A DNA stretch of 64,000 nucleotides from a virus. A program made the position numbers and the translations under genes. The notes below the pieces were generated by a model. It searched no databases and was not told where the DNA came from. It saw only the letters and a program-made list of their open reading frames with translations. Location: positions 1 through 64,000 of IMG/VR virus record IMGVR_UViG_3300035670_000137; one strand, written 5' to 3'. Within the stretch, counting starts at the first letter, position 1; each line of letters opens with the position of its first letter. Below, piece after piece: positions 20,494 to 61,937 of this stretch.

Positions 20494-21200
20494 ACTCTCC
20501 ATCCTTTATGAGATTTTCTATGCCCATTTAGTACAGCACCTAAATTTGTATGTTGTAAGTTATGCTGCTTGGCAAATTCTTTTATATTATCAATATTTGT
20601 GAATACTTCTCCTGTTGGAGATATTAGATTAGGATTTATTTTTCCCAGTGCCTTTGAGGAAAATTTATGTCCTTTATTATGTATACCTTTAATACTTTTT
20701 AAGATATCATACTTATATGGATACACTTCCTCTAACCATTTATAGTTACTTAAACTGGCTATACTTCTAACTGTATACACAGATACAGCTGTAATGTCTG
20801 CAATATCAGATGCAGTCAAGTGCTGTTCATCTACTAAAAGATTAAATACTTTAAGGATTTGTTCGTTAGAATATTTGGAACATGGATTGTTAGTACCTCG
20901 TAAACCTAGGTGGCCCCGTCGTCCTCTTGACTCATCATATGTATTAAAACCATTTAATACACTATTAAATATATCTATAGCAATATTTTCATTCTCATCT
21001 AGTGTAGACTCAGTACACTCTAATAATATCTTTAGCTTAGGAATACCATACAGATTATATGCTTCCATTAACTTTTCTGAACTTGTATTATTTTTAAGGC
21101 TATATTTATGTTGACCGAATCTATATTCTATATTATTAGATTGTCCTATATAAACTTTATCTGTACCTTCAAATTCTAAACAATATATACCTATTGTCAT
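20484..21200 (-). CDS. GIY-YIG homing endonuclease (start ATG 21200 after AGGAG)
   Basis: GIY...VYIGQS...RF..H; NUMOD-like C-terminus (SPTGEVF...HKGW). Confidence 0.85.
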   Translation of the reverse strand: MTIGIYCLEFEGTDKVYIGQSNNIEYRFGQHKYSLKNNTSSEKLMEAYNLYGIPKLKILLECTESTLDENENIAIDIFNSVLNGFNTYDESRGRRGHLGLRGTNNPCSKYSNEQILKVFNLLVDEQHLTASDIADITAVSVYTVRSIASLSNYKWLEEVYPYKYDILKSIKGIHNKGHKFSSKALGKINPNLISPTGEVFTNIDNIKEFAKQHNLQHTNLGAVLNGHRKSHKGWRVCQ

Positions 21201-21277
21201 GGTTGTTCTCCTGAAAGAAATTGAGGGCTGTTGTTCAGGCAACAGTTAACGGCTCATGACTTCCGAACCCTCTTAAA

Positions 21278-26563: not shown

Positions 26564-26983
26564 TTAGTAGAAGGAGCTAAATAGTCCTTTAGGCTTTTCG
26601 CCTTCTAATCCCAGGGCTTTAGCTTTTTGCTTCTCTATCCACCGACACTGCTTTTCAGAACTATTTAATGGAGGAGCTTTGCCGAATATACCATGTAATT
26701 TTTGATGGTGCTTAAGGCAGAGCGTAAATACCCATTCATATATTTCCTGTCTATGGGACTCTATAAACTCATCTCTAACTGCTAGAATTCCTGCATCTGT
26801 GCTAATATCATAACCTTTTTCTTTGGCCCATTTTTCGAGTAATATTGTAAGAGATGTTGTATGATGTAACTCTAGTTCGGTTTTTGCTGAACAGATGAAG
26901 CATTCATCCTTCTTTTCGTACGCCGATTTAGCACGATCACGAACATGTTTTACAGCTACTCTTTTATTTGTATTAGCGCTCAT
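26564..26983 (-). CDS. Putative nicking HNH endonuclease (T5-like, next to portal)
   Basis: CFIC...LELHH...TLC..HH..LH; same position as in T5. Confidence 0.7.
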   Translation of the reverse strand: MSANTNKRVAVKHVRDRAKSAYEKKDECFICSAKTELELHHTTSLTILLEKWAKEKGYDISTDAGILAVRDEFIESHRQEIYEWVFTLCLKHHQKLHGIFGKAPPLNSSEKQCRWIEKQKAKALGLEGEKPKGLFSSFY

Positions 26984-27678
26984 GCAAGTATCCAACCTTT
27001 ATAGCTAGGTCTTTGTCTACGTAATACTTTTCCTAAATATGCTTTACAAATTTTATGCTCTGATGCAAATTTAGTTATATTTTCTACTTTATACACTGTA
27101 CCTTCTGGAGACATTATTTCTGGATACTCTATGCCTTTTCCCTTTGCGGAGCTTCGTATACTTTGTCTTAATATATTAGCCTTCTTTATATCGGCATAAA
27201 TTTCTGGATACTCTATTTGTAACCATTTATGTGTACGTCCAGTAGCTATATCTCTTACAGTAGATATAGAAATATTTGTTATTTCAGCTATATATTTATG
27301 AGTATGTGGATCTGTCAATAAAAGAAAACATTCTAATAACTGATCTTTTGTATACTTTAAATTACTAGACTCTAGTCCGGCTAGTCCCCCTACTGACTCG
27401 GTACCTCCAGTGGTTGAGTTAAGACCATTTATATAGGAATTATATACTTCAATAGCATTTATTTCCAAATCATTTAAATTATCTTCATTAGTTTCTTCTA
27501 TTAAGATACTAAAAGTAGGTGGCCCGAAAATATTATAAGCTTTTTGTAGCTTTTCAGATCCCTGTTGTAATCTTAGAGCATATAAATGTTCTTTGAATCT
27601 CTTTTCTATATGCTTCGATTGTCCAATATATACTTTATCGGTACCCTCAAACTGAAGGCAGTATATACCTATAGTCAC
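26980..27678 (-). CDS. GIY-YIG homing endonuclease (likely GTG start 27678), paralog of 20484-21200
   Basis: TIGIYCLxFEGTDKVYIGQS shared with paralog. Confidence 0.85.
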   Translation of the reverse strand: MTIGIYCLQFEGTDKVYIGQSKHIEKRFKEHLYALRLQQGSEKLQKAYNIFGPPTFSILIEETNEDNLNDLEINAIEVYNSYINGLNSTTGGTESVGGLAGLESSNLKYTKDQLLECFLLLTDPHTHKYIAEITNISISTVRDIATGRTHKWLQIEYPEIYADIKKANILRQSIRSSAKGKGIEYPEIMSPEGTVYKVENITKFASEHKICKAYLGKVLRRQRPSYKGWILA

Positions 27679-27841
27679 TATATTCTCCATAAAGAATTCT
27701 AGGGGCCTCTGTTATGGCAGAGGTTAACGGTTAATTAGGCCGATCCCCATTTATTTTTTCCACAAAATCTCATTTTCCATTATTGTACACCTCTAGCAAG
27801 TAAAAGTCAAGAACAAAATTTTTTATGCTACATAGAAACAA

Positions 27842-27869
27842 AAATACCCGCATAAAAGCGGGTATTTTT
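27842..27869. terminator. Bidirectional intrinsic terminator
   Basis: AAATACCCGC-ataaaa-GCGGGTATTT flanked by A/T runs. Confidence 0.7.
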
Positions 27870-27870
27870 A

Positions 27871-28407
27871 TTATATACGGTTAAACACTCTATCCCAGAA
27901 GCCACGATTGATTAACTCTGTAACCTTAGCATTACTTTCATTAAGTAAGCTTTTTGTTACCCATAACTCTTTCTCTAACTCCTGTAAAGCGGTACCATCC
28001 TTGACCCTAGCAAGCTCATCTTTTAACTTATCACGTTCAGTAGTTACATCGGACCACTGCATATAGTGCTCGAAGGTGCTAAGATCCCAAGCTGCATAAG
28101 GTACCCTATCTACTAGTTCTGTCTCTTCAATACTAAGTACATTAGGTCTAGTACTGTTAAGTATATCGTTAGACCAGTGCAGGTTAATATAGTAAGATTC
28201 TAGTATGTCTATATGGTGCTTATGACATAGACGTATAATACTAAACTGTGGCAATCCGCAGCTGTTATACGTAGCTTGTATGGCTTTTGTGTGTCGTCCG
28301 GACTCCATCTCACGTATGTGAGTCTTCCATCGGTTCTCAATGTTTTCCGATTTGCCAATGTAGTATGACCCGTCACTAAAGTCAAATCGGTATATTCCGC
28401 TAATCAT
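27871..28407 (-). CDS. GIY-YIG domain protein
   Basis: GIY...YYIGKS..IENRW..H; coiled-coil tail. Confidence 0.7.
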   Translation of the reverse strand: MISGIYRFDFSDGSYYIGKSENIENRWKTHIREMESGRHTKAIQATYNSCGLPQFSIIRLCHKHHIDILESYYINLHWSNDILNSTRPNVLSIEETELVDRVPYAAWDLSTFEHYMQWSDVTTERDKLKDELARVKDGTALQELEKELWVTKSLLNESNAKVTELINRGFWDRVFNRI

Positions 28408-33029: not shown

Positions 33030-33094
33030 TGGATTATGGCACGGTTCCTGCTGTAAGCAGGGATCGTGCCAGGCTGAAAGAAAAAGGCCTTGAA

Positions 33095-33134
33095 AATCAA
33101 GGACTTAGGCCAGGGCCTGGGTAAGCTATTGATT
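33095..33134. repeat. Inverted IHF-box pair with 14-bp GC spacer (also 34273-34312, 36055-36094, 37396-37435, 38118-38157)
   Basis: WATCAANNNNTTA on each strand, identical spacing. Confidence 0.8.
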
Positions 33135-33163
33135 TATAACACTTAATTCTGCGCCTACGACCA

Positions 33164-33179
33164 TGGCACGGTTTTTGCT
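33164..33179 (+). promoter_or_regulatory. sigma54 -24/-12 box (also 36135 +, 37356 -, near-matches 32331, 33037, 33056, 38016, 38054)
   Basis: TGGCACG-N4-TTGCT exact consensus. Confidence 0.7.
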
Positions 33180-33263
33180 ATCCCTGGGCTTGTTACAATT
33201 TGTTACAATTAAGGGCTTGACTCTGCCATCCGATCAACTATAATTCAATCATAGCAAAACGAA

Positions 33264-33452
33264 ATGGAGATTGAAATGCTCAAGGTTATGTGTTCTGATT
33301 TGGCAACCGGTAATCGCAAGGTTTTCGCGGTTTGTGCAACTCCTAAAATGGCGCTTGGCATTCAAAAGCGTATGAATGAACGGAATGAGGAAGCTACTAA
33401 ATTTACTGGCAAAGCTATCCGTTTCGTTTATTTCGTTGTTCGTTCGAGGTAA
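33264..33452 (+). CDS. Hypothetical pre-early protein
   Basis: ORF right after promoter, GGAG SD before ATG 33276. Confidence 0.55.
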   Translation: MEIEMLKVMCSDLATGNRKVFAVCATPKMALGIQKRMNERNEEATKFTGKAIRFVYFVVRSR

Positions 33453-33550
33453 ATCATGGAATACTTCATTGGCTTAATTGTTCTGCTGCTTGTTCCTGAG
33501 ATCCTGAATTCGGTTATTGATGCCGTCAAAGAATGGGAAGAATTGACAAA

Positions 33551-33928
33551 ATGAAATACGACGTTGTTAAACTCCACGCTTTCGCTAATAAAATCGCCGT
33601 TGCTTTTTGGGATTATGCCAAGCAATATTGGCGTGAGGATATTGGCGAAATGCCGGAAATTCGGATGAATTCGCGATTGACTAGCACTGCCGGTCGCGCT
33701 TTTCTTCAAGATAACTATGTCGATTTGTCTTGCTATCTGTTGCAGAATAACCCCGAATATTTCCGCATCGATACTATTCCACATGAATTGTGCCATCATA
33801 TTGCTTTCCGTATTTATGGTGATCGTGGTCACGGTAAGGGTTGGAAATATGTAATGAAATCGATGGGATTATCCGGTGATCGTTGTCATACGAGGCAAAC
33901 TAAATATCAAGCTGAAAGGGCTAAATAA
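33551..33928 (+). CDS. SprT-like zinc metalloprotease
   Basis: RLTSTAGRA...HELCH...HGKGWKYVM. Confidence 0.8.
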   Translation: MKYDVVKLHAFANKIAVAFWDYAKQYWREDIGEMPEIRMNSRLTSTAGRAFLQDNYVDLSCYLLQNNPEYFRIDTIPHELCHHIAFRIYGDRGHGKGWKYVMKSMGLSGDRCHTRQTKYQAERAK

Positions 33929-34245
33929 TGTCATACGTTACTATTAATAAACATGATGCTGGTATTCTGTTTAATACTGCGGAATTGGCTGCGTTGGCCG
34001 TATTTAATAAATATGAGCAAACGATTAAAGAATACTATGCTGATAGGATTACAACTAAAAAGATTCTGGGGATTAGCTTTAAGGTTGATAATTCTAGAAT
34101 GCAGGACGAAATGTCAATAATTATTCCTAAATATAGGGTTAAAGAGACAATTGATAAGATTCGGCAATTGAATGCAATGCTTGAATACGCCGATGAAATG
34201 AATATTTCAACAAAAGACTGGGAAATTATTACTCGCTATATGTGA
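33928..34245 (+). CDS. Hypothetical pre-early protein
   Basis: TAATG-coupled ORF. Confidence 0.6.
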   Translation: MSYVTINKHDAGILFNTAELAALAVFNKYEQTIKEYYADRITTKKILGISFKVDNSRMQDEMSIIIPKYRVKETIDKIRQLNAMLEYADEMNISTKDWEIITRYM

Positions 34246-34513
34246 GCACTTACCAACCAAAAAGGTCTTTAGAATCAAGGGCTTAGCGGGGCCCTGGCCT
34301 AACCCCTTGATTTATAAGGGGTTAGGCCAGAAACGCACCAACCTGGGGCGCGCCGATTTTACCACGGCCGGCGTGGAATGTCAATAGGCCGCGGCATCAA
34401 ATGTTTTTATGGGCGCATAAAAATTACTTCGAAAAAATTTTTGCGAAAACGCTTGACAGCCTGGGGCAATGGGCGCATAATACGTTCATCAAATAACGAA
34501 AGGTAATAAACAA

Positions 34514-34987
34514 ATGTCAATTAAGCGTGTTCAGATTTACGATATGGATGGAACCATTGTGGATTCCACGCATCGTTATCGGACGATTTCGGAAAATGGA
34601 ATCGAAAAGATTGATCTTGAATATTGGCGTGCTAATGAATATCGCGCAATGGATGATTCATTGCTTCCGCTTGCAGATCAATATAAGGCTGATTTGGCTG
34701 ATCCTGAATGCTATGTTATTATCGCAACTGCTCGCGTTCTGAATGAACCGGATATTAAATTCATTAATGAAATTCTCGGGAAACCGGATTATATTATTTC
34801 TCGGAAACCGGATAGCAGCATTTCCGGCGGTGTTTTAAAGGTTAATGGATTGCGTAAATTCTTTAATCTCAAGAATTTCAAAAATGCTGCGTTTGTGTTT
34901 TATGAGGATAATGCAGCATATCTGAAAAAGGTTTGCGATACTTTTAAAATCTCCGGTGTATATTGTCCGTCTAATCAGGGTCACTAA
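34514..34987 (+). CDS. dmp: HAD deoxynucleoside-5'-monophosphatase (T5 Dmp-like)
   Basis: YDMDGTIVDS.HR, DSLLPL, IATAR, FYED. Confidence 0.8.
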   Translation: MSIKRVQIYDMDGTIVDSTHRYRTISENGIEKIDLEYWRANEYRAMDDSLLPLADQYKADLADPECYVIIATARVLNEPDIKFINEILGKPDYIISRKPDSSISGGVLKVNGLRKFFNLKNFKNAAFVFYEDNAAYLKKVCDTFKISGVYCPSNQGH

Positions 34988-34991
34988 AATC

Positions 34992-35687
34992 ATGGCTAAA
35001 AAAGAATATTTCCTCATTGTTGATACTGAAACGACGGCGAATGATACTGTTTTCGATTTCGGTGCGGTTGTTTGTGATCGCAAGGGTAATATTGTGCAGA
35101 AATGCGCGATTATCGTAAAAGAGGAATTGGATAAAGATTTGTTCTTTGATCCGAAAGCGGAAGGCATTTGGTCGCGTCAATATGCGAATAAGAAAAAAGC
35201 CGGTTATCTGGAAATGATTAATAATGGTAATCGGATGGTCGCATCTGTTGCCGCTGTTAATCGTTGGCTTGAAAAGGTAGCGGCTAAATATAATCCGACT
35301 ATTACCGCTTATAATTTCGCTTTTGATCGTGAGAAATGCGCGAAAACCGGAATTGATTTGTCGATGTTTAATTCTAGCTTCTGCCTTTGGCATTTGTCCT
35401 GCTCGATTTATGCTAAGACTAAGGCTTATCGGCAATTTATTCTCGATAATCATTATTTCGGTAATCGGACTAAATTCGGCAATATGACTTACAAAACCAA
35501 TGCCGAGGTTATGGCTCATTTTGTAACTGGTAATTATTCAGAAGAACCGCATACTGCAATTGAAGATGCTCAATATTATGAGCTTCCGATTCTGGTTTCT
35601 ATTCTGAAAAAGAAAGGCTGGAAAAATAAAATTGGAACCGCTTATAATTGGAAAGATTACCAATTAAAAGATAATTTTAAGGCTTAA
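34992..35687 (+). CDS. DEDDh 3'-5' exonuclease
   Basis: VDTETT, AYNFAFD, HTAIEDA. Confidence 0.8.
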   Translation: MAKKEYFLIVDTETTANDTVFDFGAVVCDRKGNIVQKCAIIVKEELDKDLFFDPKAEGIWSRQYANKKKAGYLEMINNGNRMVASVAAVNRWLEKVAAKYNPTITAYNFAFDREKCAKTGIDLSMFNSSFCLWHLSCSIYAKTKAYRQFILDNHYFGNRTKFGNMTYKTNAEVMAHFVTGNYSEEPHTAIEDAQYYELPILVSILKKKGWKNKIGTAYNWKDYQLKDNFKA

Positions 35688-36269
35688 TAGGAAAATATAA
35701 AATGAATACTTTAATTTATCGTGAAAATGGGAATATTGAACAAAAAGAATTCAAATCAATATATGAGGCTGCAAACTGGGTAAAAGAAAATACCGGATAT
35801 TTTGAGGCAAATGAGAATATTTTAATTGTTGATTGGAAAATGAAAGAACAGCAATGGTTCCAATTGCAATTAACTATTAAATTGGTTGAATTAGAATAAT
35901 ATTATAAATATGGCTGATATACTATTTATAATCTGGATAATATATTGGCTATATATTGCCTTTATTGCTGAATAATATTATAAATAGGTCTTATATAAGA
36001 CCTATTTTTTCGGCCAGGATGTAAGCGAGCACTCACTCCAGAAAAAGCCTTTAGAATCAAGGACTTAGGTGGAGGCCCCGCTAACCCCTTGATTTATAAG
36101 GACTATTTTTCGACTATCAATGACTTACAGAACATGGCACGCTTCTTGCTTCAATCCTGGCTCATAAGAAATTTTTATGCTAGGATAGAAATTACTTCGA
36201 AAAAAGTTCTTGACAAGATGAAACGGTCGGAGCATAATATGCCCATGTTAAACGATAGGATTAATTGAA

Positions 36270-36479
36270 ATGATTGCTTGGATTGGTACGATTTGCGGTA
36301 TTATTGGTGCTTTGCTTGTTGCCGCTAATAATGGTCATCAGGACATTGGTTATATGTTCTTTTTGGTAGGTGCGGGTTTTTCTCTTGCATCATCGATCAA
36401 AGAAAAGCACAAAGCGAATATCGCTCTTTGGTCGGTTTTCTTTTCGATTAATGTTTATGGATTGATGCGTTATGTCTAA
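36270..36479 (+). CDS. Small membrane protein
   Basis: Three hydrophobic segments; follows promoter. Confidence 0.6.
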   Translation: MIAWIGTICGIIGALLVAANNGHQDIGYMFFLVGAGFSLASSIKEKHKANIALWSVFFSINVYGLMRYV

Positions 36480-36825
36480 GAAATTGGAAAATGAGGTTAA
36501 GCGATTCGCTTATGATTTTATGGAAAAAATGGGCTGGAAACCTGTCCATATTAATCGGATCAAAATCTCTAATATGCGTCGTTATAAGGGATTGTGTATA
36601 ACTGAAGATTGCGAATCGGTTTATATCATCCTGAGCGAGCATACTCACGACAACAATAAGGATTTTTTCGCTACGCTTATTCATGAATTGATCCATGCAC
36701 ATTTGCTGATTAATAAGCATAAGTTTATGTCACATCATAAGCATGGCAAAATGTTTAAGCGTTACGCTAAAAAGGTTGAAAAGAAAACAAACGGATATTA
36801 TACTGTCGAGGAAATCGTAAAATGA
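36472..36825 (+). CDS. SprT-like metalloprotease
   Basis: TLIHELIHAH...HGKMF. Confidence 0.7.
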   Translation: MSKKLENEVKRFAYDFMEKMGWKPVHINRIKISNMRRYKGLCITEDCESVYIILSEHTHDNNKDFFATLIHELIHAHLLINKHKFMSHHKHGKMFKRYAKKVEKKTNGYYTVEEIVK

Positions 36826-37618
36826 AAAAGACTTTCGAGGAATGGAAAAAGCAGGTTGATCTGGAAATCGAAAAGCGTGCTTATGGCTTGAATTCTGACG
36901 ATCTGCCCGATTATGATTATTGGGCTGAATGGGAAGCCGGAGAATCTCCGGTTTTTACTGCAAAGGCTGCAATTCAAAACGCGAAGGATTATTAAAATGG
37001 AATTCGATCTAGTTGATGAAATGATGTGGGAAGATTTAATTGATTTTGAATCTCTTGAATCTGTCGGGCTTGAGGATTCATATTGTGGAGATACTGTTCC
37101 GGCGGCCCAGGCTGTATATTACTCGGAGGAAATGTGATATGATAAAACTCGTTATTTCTTTTGATGAATTCGAAGGCGTATTAGGTCATCTTGATCCGCA
37201 TTTGGATGCCGCTTGCCAAGCAATGGAAGCATATAACGATTGGCTTTGCGATTATCTGGAAAATCAATTCCCTGATTGGGATATTGAACTGGCATTTGAT
37301 TTTAATAATGCCGAATGGGATTTTGATAATACCGAGGTACATATTCCAATGATCGTGCAATAATCGTGCCAGCAAAACCCCGAAAAGTCCTTACAAATCA
37401 AGGACTTAGCGGGGCCCCTGGCTAACTCATTGATTTTAAAGGCTTTTTTCGGCGTATGACAGCATAATATCCTGGGCTTGTCCAATCAAATTTTTCTATA
37501 TGAGGATAGAAATTTTCGTGTTGCTTTGCCGAATCCGATTCTGTATAATTCTTTACATGGGATGACGAACTGGCTCAACGAAATCCCAAACCCTAAACCG
37601 AGCCACTAGGAAAATGCT

Positions 37619-57872: not shown

Positions 57873-58910
57873 ATGGCAGAACCAAGAAAGATAGTACCTA
57901 CTAAAGCTGGAAGTGAGCTTCCTAAGGAAGTTACGCTCCAAGATGCAGCTACACAGGAACTAATTGCAGAAAATGCAGTTACAAATCCTAGTGAACTAAA
58001 CGCTATAGTAGTTGGTTTAGGACGTGGCAAGGTTGAAGATCCTAGTAAACCAGTGCCAACACAAGTAGTAGAATTTAATAGTCTTTTAGAAGAAGATGCA
58101 GCTGCTGCTGGTTTATCCGGTGGTGGTAGTGATGGGGGGCATTCTTTTGTATCCCTTCTGCGAATAGTAGAAGGATTAGACCCCACAAATTATAATTTCC
58201 CAATAAACGGTACAGGCGTTCCACCAGAAATACGTGGAGAAGTACTAGCTCTATTACCTGATATTGATGATATTGAAATACCTTTAATACCTGACACTCC
58301 TGTTATTCCCGATCTACCGGACGTACCCGATACGCCAGAAGATCCAGAAGATCCAGAAGATCCAGAAGATCCAGAAGATCCAGAAGATCCAGAAGATCCA
58401 GAAGATCCAGAAGATCCAGAAGATCCAGAAGATGAAAAAGGTAATAACGGCCACGGCAATAATACAGACGGACAGGATGATAATAATCCTGGCCAAGGCG
58501 GTGGCGGACCTAACTCTGACCCTAAGGATGGACAAGATGAAGACGAAGGAAATAAAGGTAACCAAGAAGACTCAACGCCAGGAGTCAACGGCGGAGGGAA
58601 TAATTCTAGTAATCCTAATCCTAGTGAGCCTTCTAGTCCTCCTGATATAGATAAGGGTGGCCCTAAAGGTAACAATGGCTGGGGTAACGGGGATCAGGAT
58701 GCACCTGGAAATAGCCTAGAAAATAATAATGCAGAGAATAACCAAAACGGTACACCAGCTCCAAAACTTAAGTTTGAAGACATGGTTGCCCCGCAGGATG
58801 ACATATTTGCAGGTGGCAGTAACTCTAGCCACGGTAATGATTGGAATATGCCTGATTTGGATACTAATATTCATGCTAAAGTAGTAGAACAGTTAAAAAA
58901 TAGTCATTAA
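57873..58910 (+). CDS. Acidic protein with a LapA-type retention-module motif
   Basis: LLEEDAAAAGLSGGGSDGGHSFVSLLRIVEG; (PED)11; two KGNNGxGN repeats. Confidence 0.6.
   Translation: MAEPRKIVPTKAGSELPKEVTLQDAATQELIAENAVTNPSELNAIVVGLGRGKVEDPSKPVPTQVVEFNSLLEEDAAAAGLSGGGSDGGHSFVSLLRIVEGLDPTNYNFPINGTGVPPEIRGEVLALLPDIDDIEIPLIPDTPVIPDLPDVPDTPEDPEDPEDPEDPEDPEDPEDPEDPEDPEDPEDEKGNNGHGNNTDGQDDNNPGQGGGGPNSDPKDGQDEDEGNKGNQEDSTPGVNGGGNNSSNPNPSEPSSPPDIDKGGPKGNNGWGNGDQDAPGNSLENNNAENNQNGTPAPKLKFEDMVAPQDDIFAGGSNSSHGNDWNMPDLDTNIHAKVVEQLKNSH
58335..58433 (+). repeat. Perfect 9-bp tandem repeat (CCAGAAGAT)x11
   Basis: Read directly from the sequence. Confidence 0.95.
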
Positions 58911-61508: not shown

Positions 61509-61639
61509 TATGGGAACGACTACACTACATAACCGAAAAGAAGCTGAAGTGTCCGGAACTTGCAGTGGAAGGCGTAGGAAGATAGGGTCGGCGTTGGTTC
61601 AATCCCATTCCCATACTTTGGCCTACCATATTCGTTGAT

Positions 61640-61937
61640 GGCAAAGTAAAAGTATTCAAGACGGGAGGGGCAGTGCCTCCCCTGGTCCACCAATAAGTAG
61701 CTATAAGAGTGACACAGTAGGGTATTAGCAGACGTCCTAGTACCTCTGGAGTAATCATAAACTTAGCTACTTATTAATGGGCCAGTAATAGATTCGATTG
61801 GGTATGAATAGCAATGCTGGAGAATCGTCAAGAAAGACGTAAAAATCACAATAATAAATGCAAACGATTCTACGTTCGCTCTAGCCGCTTGAGCTAGATA
61901 AGGTTTCGGGACTGTCCCTTATTACCAATACAGTCCC
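61640..61937 (+). ncRNA. ssrA: Circularly permuted (two-piece) tmRNA; tag ANDSTFALAA
   Basis: Acceptor piece ends CTGGTCCACCA (61692) upstream of the GGGCCAG start (61779); G3:U70; tag 61860-61892; 5' limit approximate. Confidence 0.88.

Follow-up and report, generated by a model that had tools for sequence, protein, structure and literature searches.

A covarying three-way-junction leader RNA with a loop-loop contact at the Shine-Dalgarno sequence of homing endonuclease genes in uncultured T5-like phages

Homing endonucleases have to be expressed enough to spread, but not so much that they harm their carrier. To our knowledge, the only solution described in phages until now is the T4-type hairpin, in which a late promoter is embedded. 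Sequestration of the Shine-Dalgarno (SD) sequence is an established means of controlling the homing endonucleases of T-even phages, and hairpins that sequester the ribosome-binding site (RBS) have been described for I-TevI, I-TevII, I-TevIII, segB, and mobE of Aeh1 (PMC2988022). Each is a plain hairpin of two strands that harbours a late promoter, so that transcripts made late are missing the 5' arm and are translated (PMC2988022). The leader described here is like the T-even hairpins in that a conserved leader RNA of a phage homing endonuclease gene pairs the SD, and the T-even rationale, limiting a nuclease that is encoded on abundant polycistronic transcripts, fits it as well. It is unlike them in that the anti-SD sequence is the loop of a hairpin belonging to a three-way junction, which contacts the SD in a second loop. 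Furthermore, no internal promoter was found within either of the two copies of the leader studied here, and the one promoter-like site associated with copy 2 lies upstream of the entire structure. Hairpin loops that pair with the SD region and control initiation are also found in the preQ1-II and SAM-II/V riboswitches and in the rpsO/S15 operator of E. coli. Those RNAs have conserved ligand-binding or protein-binding cores, whereas in the present leader the paired letters vary and few junction bases are conserved. The leader gives a known regulatory principle a new architecture and is found neither in Rfam nor in the literature that we searched. It would represent a different and more elaborate solution, in which a pre-formed three-way junction clamps the RBS by a loop-loop contact.

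The stretch of DNA analysed here (the window) comprises 64,000 nucleotides, positions 1 to 64,000 of IMG/VR virus record IMGVR_UViG_3300035670_000137. The full record is 76.8 kb long and about 73% complete, and its sequence is present in subsurface metagenomes. In its portal protein the record shares 42% identity with T5-like vibriophages such as pVp-1. Neighbouring genes encode the terminase large subunit, the portal, a fused protease and major head protein, a head-tail adaptor, a 500-aa neck protein, the tail terminator, and the major tail protein. The two leaders precede two GIY-YIG homing endonuclease genes (Pfam PF01541) on the minus strand, the products of which are 45% identical. P0002 (20484..21200), which follows copy 1, is located between the genes for the 500-aa neck protein and the tail terminator. 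P0001 (26980..27678, with a GUG start) follows copy 2 at a site with the terminase gene on one side and the phrog_3497 and portal genes on the other. At its 3' end P0001 extends into the beginning of the gene that follows (26564-26995, phrog_3497), which in turn precedes the portal gene. Contigs from DNA datasets were aligned at both leaders and contained no informative variant and no clean joint.

The preliminary description had presented copy 2 as an RBS-occluding leader with nested stems, a CCAUAA loop, a complementary target and a GUG start codon on the minus strand, and on re-reading the sequence we found every one of these elements where it had placed them. The three-way junction formed by P1, P2 and P3 spans 27702..27748 (minus strand, as are all coordinates of the two leaders). 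It is supported by the sequence itself, by the minimum-energy fold, which gives the same junction, by a covariance-model match, and by covariation in P1, P2 and P3. P1 pairs GGGG (27748-27745) with CCCC (27705-27702), and its 5' arm is followed by AU. P2 consists of CGG (27742-27740), the loop CCUAAUUAA, which contains the palindrome UAAUUA, and CCG (27730-27728). UUAA forms the joining segment between P2 and P3 (J2/3), and the arms of P3, CCUCUG (27723-27718) and CAGAGG (27711-27706), enclose the loop CCAUAA (27717-27712). Separated from the 3' arm of P1 by UAGA is a further hairpin, P4 (27682..27697), in which AUUCU (27697-27693) and AGAAU (27686-27682) flank the target UUAUGG (27692-27687). 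The target is thus followed by AG, AAUAUA and GUG, with the last AUA lying between P4 and the start codon (GUG, 27678-27676). The SD sequence GGAG (27688-27685) has one half in the P4 loop and the other half in the P4 stem. We consider GUG 27678 to be the homologous start because its product aligns with the MTIGIY of copy 1; an in-frame AUG at 27690 lies within the target and has no SD. A sigma-70-like promoter (TTGACT-17-TACAAT, 27782..27810, 10/12 matches) is located upstream of the entire leader, and therefore its transcripts would carry the complete lock proposed below. The P2 loop and J2/3 of copy 2 together (CCUAAUUAACCGUUAA, 27724-27739) contain UAA in all three frames. This arrangement is not conserved in the class of leaders found at the terminase site, and it is therefore probably a by-product of the AU-rich palindrome.

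Copy 1 occupies 21206..21272 through P4, and its whole anatomy up to the start codon spans 21272-21198, as identified from the sequence and from covariance-model matches. P1 pairs GAGGG (21272-21268) with CCCUC (21227-21223), with UU after the 5' arm. The CGG and CCG arms of P2 enclose the loop AAGUCAUGAG, with the palindrome UCAUGA, and are followed by UUAA. P3 (CUGUUG/CAACAG) has the loop CCUGAA (21239-21234). After AAU comes P4, in which UUCU and AGAA flank the target UUCAGG (21215-21210), and then CAACC and AUG. Upstream is the neck gene, whose stop codon precedes the leader by 6 nt, with no promoter in between. The P1 and P3 stems carry compensatory changes between the two copies. In both the loop and the target it is positions 3 and 4 that differ from one copy to the other, and every pair remains Watson-Crick, in agreement with the covariation that the preliminary description had pointed out.

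We compared 16 distinct leader sequences, all from uncultured phages. A covariance model constructed from 11 leaders of other phages, with both window copies left out, recovered copy 2 with 64.6 bits (E 4e-14) and copy 1 with 36.3 bits (E 1e-6; a second bit score for copy 1 was 53.9), and nothing beyond these two in the 76.8-kb genome. In a model-made alignment of 16 rows, 95.9% of the cells in P1, P2, P3 and the loop-target helix pair, compared to 37-51% when the partners are slid by 1-3 columns. Double-sided changes were found in 11 of the 19 pairs, and none of 500 shuffles matched the observed covariation score. Four of the six pairs of the loop-target (kissing) helix are compensatory in the same alignment; as this helix is absent from the model, it cannot have shaped the alignment. 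Every unpaired cell of the kissing helix (helix 4) comes from the rows of loci L111 and L135, which the model-made alignments place off by one column in P1, P4 and the kissing helix. A register-free script was added to get round this misregister, and it identified a perfect 6-nt complement of the P3 loop downstream in all 16 distinct sequences. There are nine different P3 loops (CCUGAA, CCAUAA, CCACAA, CCUUAA, CCUGUA, CCGCUA, CCGACA, CUGACA, and CCACUA). None of 214 cross-combinations of leaders and targets with different loops gave a match, and the target was present in shuffled downstream regions in 0-1.3% of trials. The loop-target pairing that had been described from two copies is hence extended to 16 distinct sequences and nine loop/target codes. 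At one position in P3, 5 of the 16 sequences have a U-G pair. Such pairs work only in the RNA of the leader strand, and therefore the selected molecule is the RNA of that strand. The energy of the nested fold is unremarkable (z of -0.13 and -0.20, not significant). On this comparative evidence from sequence, the leader is a real, covarying cis-RNA.

The preliminary description was right to place the SD inside a paired region, which makes an RBS-occluding leader the natural reading, but it had missed that the target is itself the loop of a hairpin. The register-free script found the 6-nt target flanked by an inverted repeat of 3-6 bp (P4) in all 16 sequences, for example UAAUCU[UAGCGG]AGAUUA, ACCU[UGUCAG]GGGU, and CUUAUU[UACAGG]AAUAAG. 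The P4 stems covary (AUUCU/AGAAU, UAAUCU/AGAUUA, ACCU/GGGU, CUUAUU/AAUAAG), although the inner three pairs are nearly invariant and therefore neither support nor refute P4, and with P4 included 93% of the structure is paired. As the target is the P4 loop, what would otherwise be called a pseudoknot is a kissing complex that two 6-nt loops form within one molecule. Kissing loops of 6 nt that pair completely are known to be sterically feasible, as in TAR/TAR*. In copy 2, the GG of GGAG would lie in the kissing helix (with the CC of the P3 loop) and the AG(A) in the 3' arm of P4, so that the SD would be wholly buried. We infer from this predicted structure that the RBS is occluded. An insertion in L063 places a second possible SD outside P4. 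Two further loci, L080 and L117, follow the same plan, their stems being 7 bp and their loops 7 nt long (GUAGUGA/UCACUAC and CUCGUAA/UUACGAG). Neither of them was detected by covariance models R1 and R2, and their architecture suggests that they may be kin to the family. A generic kissing-hairpin scan, which gave 12% false positives on shuffled sequences, was applied solely to confirm these two.

Leaders were collected by several routes. A DNA-pattern scan of IMG/VR contigs found the leader in L006 and L007, and a metagenome scan added L035/L039, with one new code (CCUUAA/UUAAGG), and L037, a duplicate of the L006 leader. Three further matches of the metagenome scan were chance matches, 25 of the 27 loci found with a loose DNA pattern in one scan were false, and L033 was a chance match inside a coding region. 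At the protein level, 137 homologues were found, and an alignment of 30 GIY-YIG homologues was used as the query against viral contigs. This yielded 80 viral loci with 65 distinct upstream regions, 11 of which have the leader and two of which (L080 and L117) have the longer variant; single-protein queries (P0002 and the 500-aa neck protein) gave no match in viral contigs. About 80% of the related genes have no kissing-loop leader. Finally, a scan with the conserved P2-hairpin sequence, which is blind to the downstream gene, returned only known leader contigs plus L135 and L142. All of the leaders from this gene-blind scan precede nuclease genes, and the nuclease is GIY-YIG in all but L007; the leader-bearing GIY-YIG genes are of the MTIGIY type. 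In L007, the leader is located at the neck/tail-terminator site, as is copy 1, and precedes an endonuclease VII/HNH-type ORF that matches phrog_1035 endonuclease VII (E 7e-16) and, weakly, HNH. The largest class has GCGG/CCGC as P1 and is located at the terminase/phrog_3497/portal site, as is copy 2. Members of this terminase-site class have their own extended -10 promoter (TGnTATAAT) and a small 5' hairpin upstream of P1. The leader thus recurs before unrelated nucleases at structural-operon hot spots. Among the loci sampled, the leader is part of homing endonuclease cassettes at two or three structural-operon hot spots in one group of T5-like phages.

Outside this group the searches were negative. 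All pattern matches in bacterial genomes (185,579 species) were due to chance and a stricter pattern gave none, and 50,697 cultured phage records contained neither a DNA match to the leader nor a close protein match. Searches of Rfam 15 with the window copies and 13 related leaders (E up to 10) returned no family match, including riboswitches and ribozymes; below threshold there were only terminator-type matches, at the hairpin upstream of the promoter. The int-alpA family (RF02996) matched neither copy nor any of the 13 related leaders (E up to 10) and had no match in the genome record. The main text of PMC5737381 does not deal with this family. Our literature search found no description of such a leader. 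Several loci of the GIY-YIG family (L045, L054, L057, L059, L074, L086, L093, L104, and L107, at about 1100-1200) have a different leader, a long hairpin with its 3' arm over the SD. These long hairpins have an embedded -35/-10 promoter, which is the T4 I-TevI design, here in uncultured phages. The presence of T4-like leaders in the same GIY-YIG family indicates that the family uses at least two leader solutions.

The structure suggests that the leader probably acts in cis as a translational lock on a free-standing homing endonuclease gene. The P1-P2-P3 junction would form first during transcription, before the SD is made, and would display the 6-nt P3 loop (CCNNNA). P4 would form next; its loop (UNNNGG), the exact complement of the P3 loop, would be clamped by it, while its 3' arm would hold the AG(A). 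Together, the kissing helix and the P4 stem would bury all of GGAG, binding of the 30S subunit would be infrequent, and very little nuclease would be produced. This would apply to copy 1 even though the late structural-operon transcript is abundant, and also to copy 2 when its transcript starts at the leader's own promoter. By keeping translation low, the lock would limit the nuclease and leave the neighbours undisturbed, copy 1 being embedded in a late transcript without a terminator or promoter. Because there is no promoter inside the structure, every transcript should be locked, in which case either leakage would suffice or something would open the lock. The three middle letters of the loop can vary freely if the partner follows, so each copy would have a private code, and no cross-talk between copies 1 and 2 is expected as neither the kissing code nor the P2 palindrome is shared between them. 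Translational repression by the leader is what we infer from this model. Against it stand the unremarkable fold energy and the fact that the third GIY-YIG gene of the genome, like about 80% of the related genes, has no leader of this kind. A weaker SD would be a cheaper way to achieve repression, and the elaborate junction and conserved P2 loop therefore hint at an extra layer of control, for which the P2 loop would be the obvious candidate.

The P2 loop is the most conserved single-stranded part of the leader. It contains a 6-nt palindrome in all 16 sequences, which is UAAUUA in 14 and UCAUGA in two (copy 1 and L035), so the sole wholesale replacement of the loop retained palindromy. As there are only two types of palindrome, this counts as one independent event (chance about 0.08). 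The P2 loop of the 7-nt-loop variants L080 and L117 is UUUAGCGG, which has no palindrome. The dimerisation initiation site of HIV-1 is a 9-nt loop with a central 6-nt palindrome, flanked by two nucleotides on the 5' side and one on the 3' side. Read from the sequence, the P2 loop (CC-UAAUUA-A/C) has the same 2+6+1 geometry. Unlike in the HIV-1 site, the flanks are not purines and most members have a palindrome made up of A and U alone; dimerisation of the leader is putative. The P2 loop of copy 1 and L035 also contains GUCAUG, and its complement, CAUGAC (UAUGAC in L035), lies at the start codon; in copy 1 the two sites are at window positions 21253-21262 and 21196-21201 (minus strand). This complementarity could be a possible second contact on the initiation codon, and it is not seen with P2 loops of the UAAUUA type.

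These properties of the P2 loop bear on whether the lock might be a regulated switch, which a trans factor opens or tightens, as opposed to a constant damper. Candidates for such a factor would be HIV-1-like dimerisation, in which the self-complementary P2 loops of two leaders pair, a phage or host protein bound to the P2 loop, or a small ligand in the junction. The conservation of the loop and its unfailing palindromy among the 16 leaders favour a switch, as does the position of the promoters upstream of the whole leader, from which no transcript would escape the lock by its start site. However, the palindrome provides the evidence of one independent event and is missing in L080 and L117, a UAAUUA duplex would be weak, being all A-U, and a typical ligand pocket would need more conserved unpaired bases than the junction has (J2/3 UUNR; J1/2 ends in U). 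Rfam 15 contains no riboswitch model that matches the leader, and the use of one leader by two unrelated nucleases speaks against autoregulation through the protein product. We therefore regard a switch as rather unlikely. A more specific version, which strikes us as doubtful, is that the leaders are orthogonal, addressable locks with private kissing codes, in which P2-palindrome dimers of identical leaders tie each lock to the concentration of its own mRNA. Such a lock could, for example, open or tighten only late, when transcripts are abundant. If this were true, a retrovirus-like RNA dimerisation signal would be used for translational timing in a phage, and the pairing of the copy 1 P2 loop (GUCAUG) with the start region (CAUGAC) would be a second lock.

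Two other explanations can be considered. The structure could serve the mRNA, either as a processing or stability element or as an activator or standby site that aids initiation; the loop-to-SD-flank pseudoknot of IncI-alpha/IncB repZ/repA does help initiation. The leader of copy 1 lies inside a polycistronic late operon, where processing is plausible, and in copy 2 and the terminase-site class a compact, stable 5' structure follows the promoter. However, in the 14 standard leaders the sequence that covaries with the loop is the SD region itself (L063 being the exception), pairing of the SD is expected to hinder 30S binding and not to help it, and no Rfam ribozyme or known processing motif matches, which makes a role of this kind improbable in our view. 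Alternatively, the element could act as DNA, as an operator, a homing-site mimic or a recombination signal, its conservation being unrelated to RNA. The DNA does contain the palindromes TAATTA, TCATGA and GTTAAC, and I-TevI binds an operator in its own promoter region (PMC2988022). Nevertheless, double changes keep four helices and the loop-loop contact paired through sequence drift, G-U pairs are tolerated on the leader strand only, and the element is always sense-oriented, with the promoter or upstream stop codon before it and the start codon after it. We consider a DNA-level element to be highly improbable and favour the translational lock. If repression by this lock is confirmed, the leaders would constitute a new class of cis-regulatory RNA and a ready set of orthogonal translational off-switches, and they would provide a way to study how essential late operons tolerate selfish genes in their midst.

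The surroundings of copy 2 and the rest of the genome have several other features. Directly upstream of copy 2 there is a second, shorter GIY-YIG gene (27871-28407, minus strand; 178 aa, PF01541), meaning that two nuclease genes are in tandem at one hot spot. The ATG of this gene overlaps the stop codon of the terminase gene (ATGA), which suggests that the two may be translationally coupled, and the gene has no structured leader. It is followed by a terminator-like hairpin at about 27842-27872, upstream of the copy 2 promoter. The third full-length GIY-YIG gene of the genome is located outside the window (G000 70762-71442, plus strand) and its product is 40% identical to P0002. It has a TTGACA...TATAAT promoter and a short, unstructured leader (locus L003, 1440-1500) with no kissing-loop element.

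On the plus strand, a full-length match to the Rfam family tmRNA_permuted was found at window positions 61630-61892 (98.2 bits, gathering score 47). It lies inside a cluster of 22 tRNA genes (43.6-63.7 kb), and a two-piece (permuted) tmRNA is unusual in a T5-like phage. A 72-nt repeat is present in four copies within 33082-37454 (plus strand), in which AATCAAGG...TTGATTT half-sites flank a GC-rich core, and seven near-identical promoter-like repeats (TTGA...TATAAT) are spread over 32.4 to 63.7 kb. The tRNA region also contains a perfect 9-nt tandem array of CCAGAAGAT with at least 13 units (58299-58458, plus strand), which, if coding, would specify a Pro-Glu-Asp repeat.
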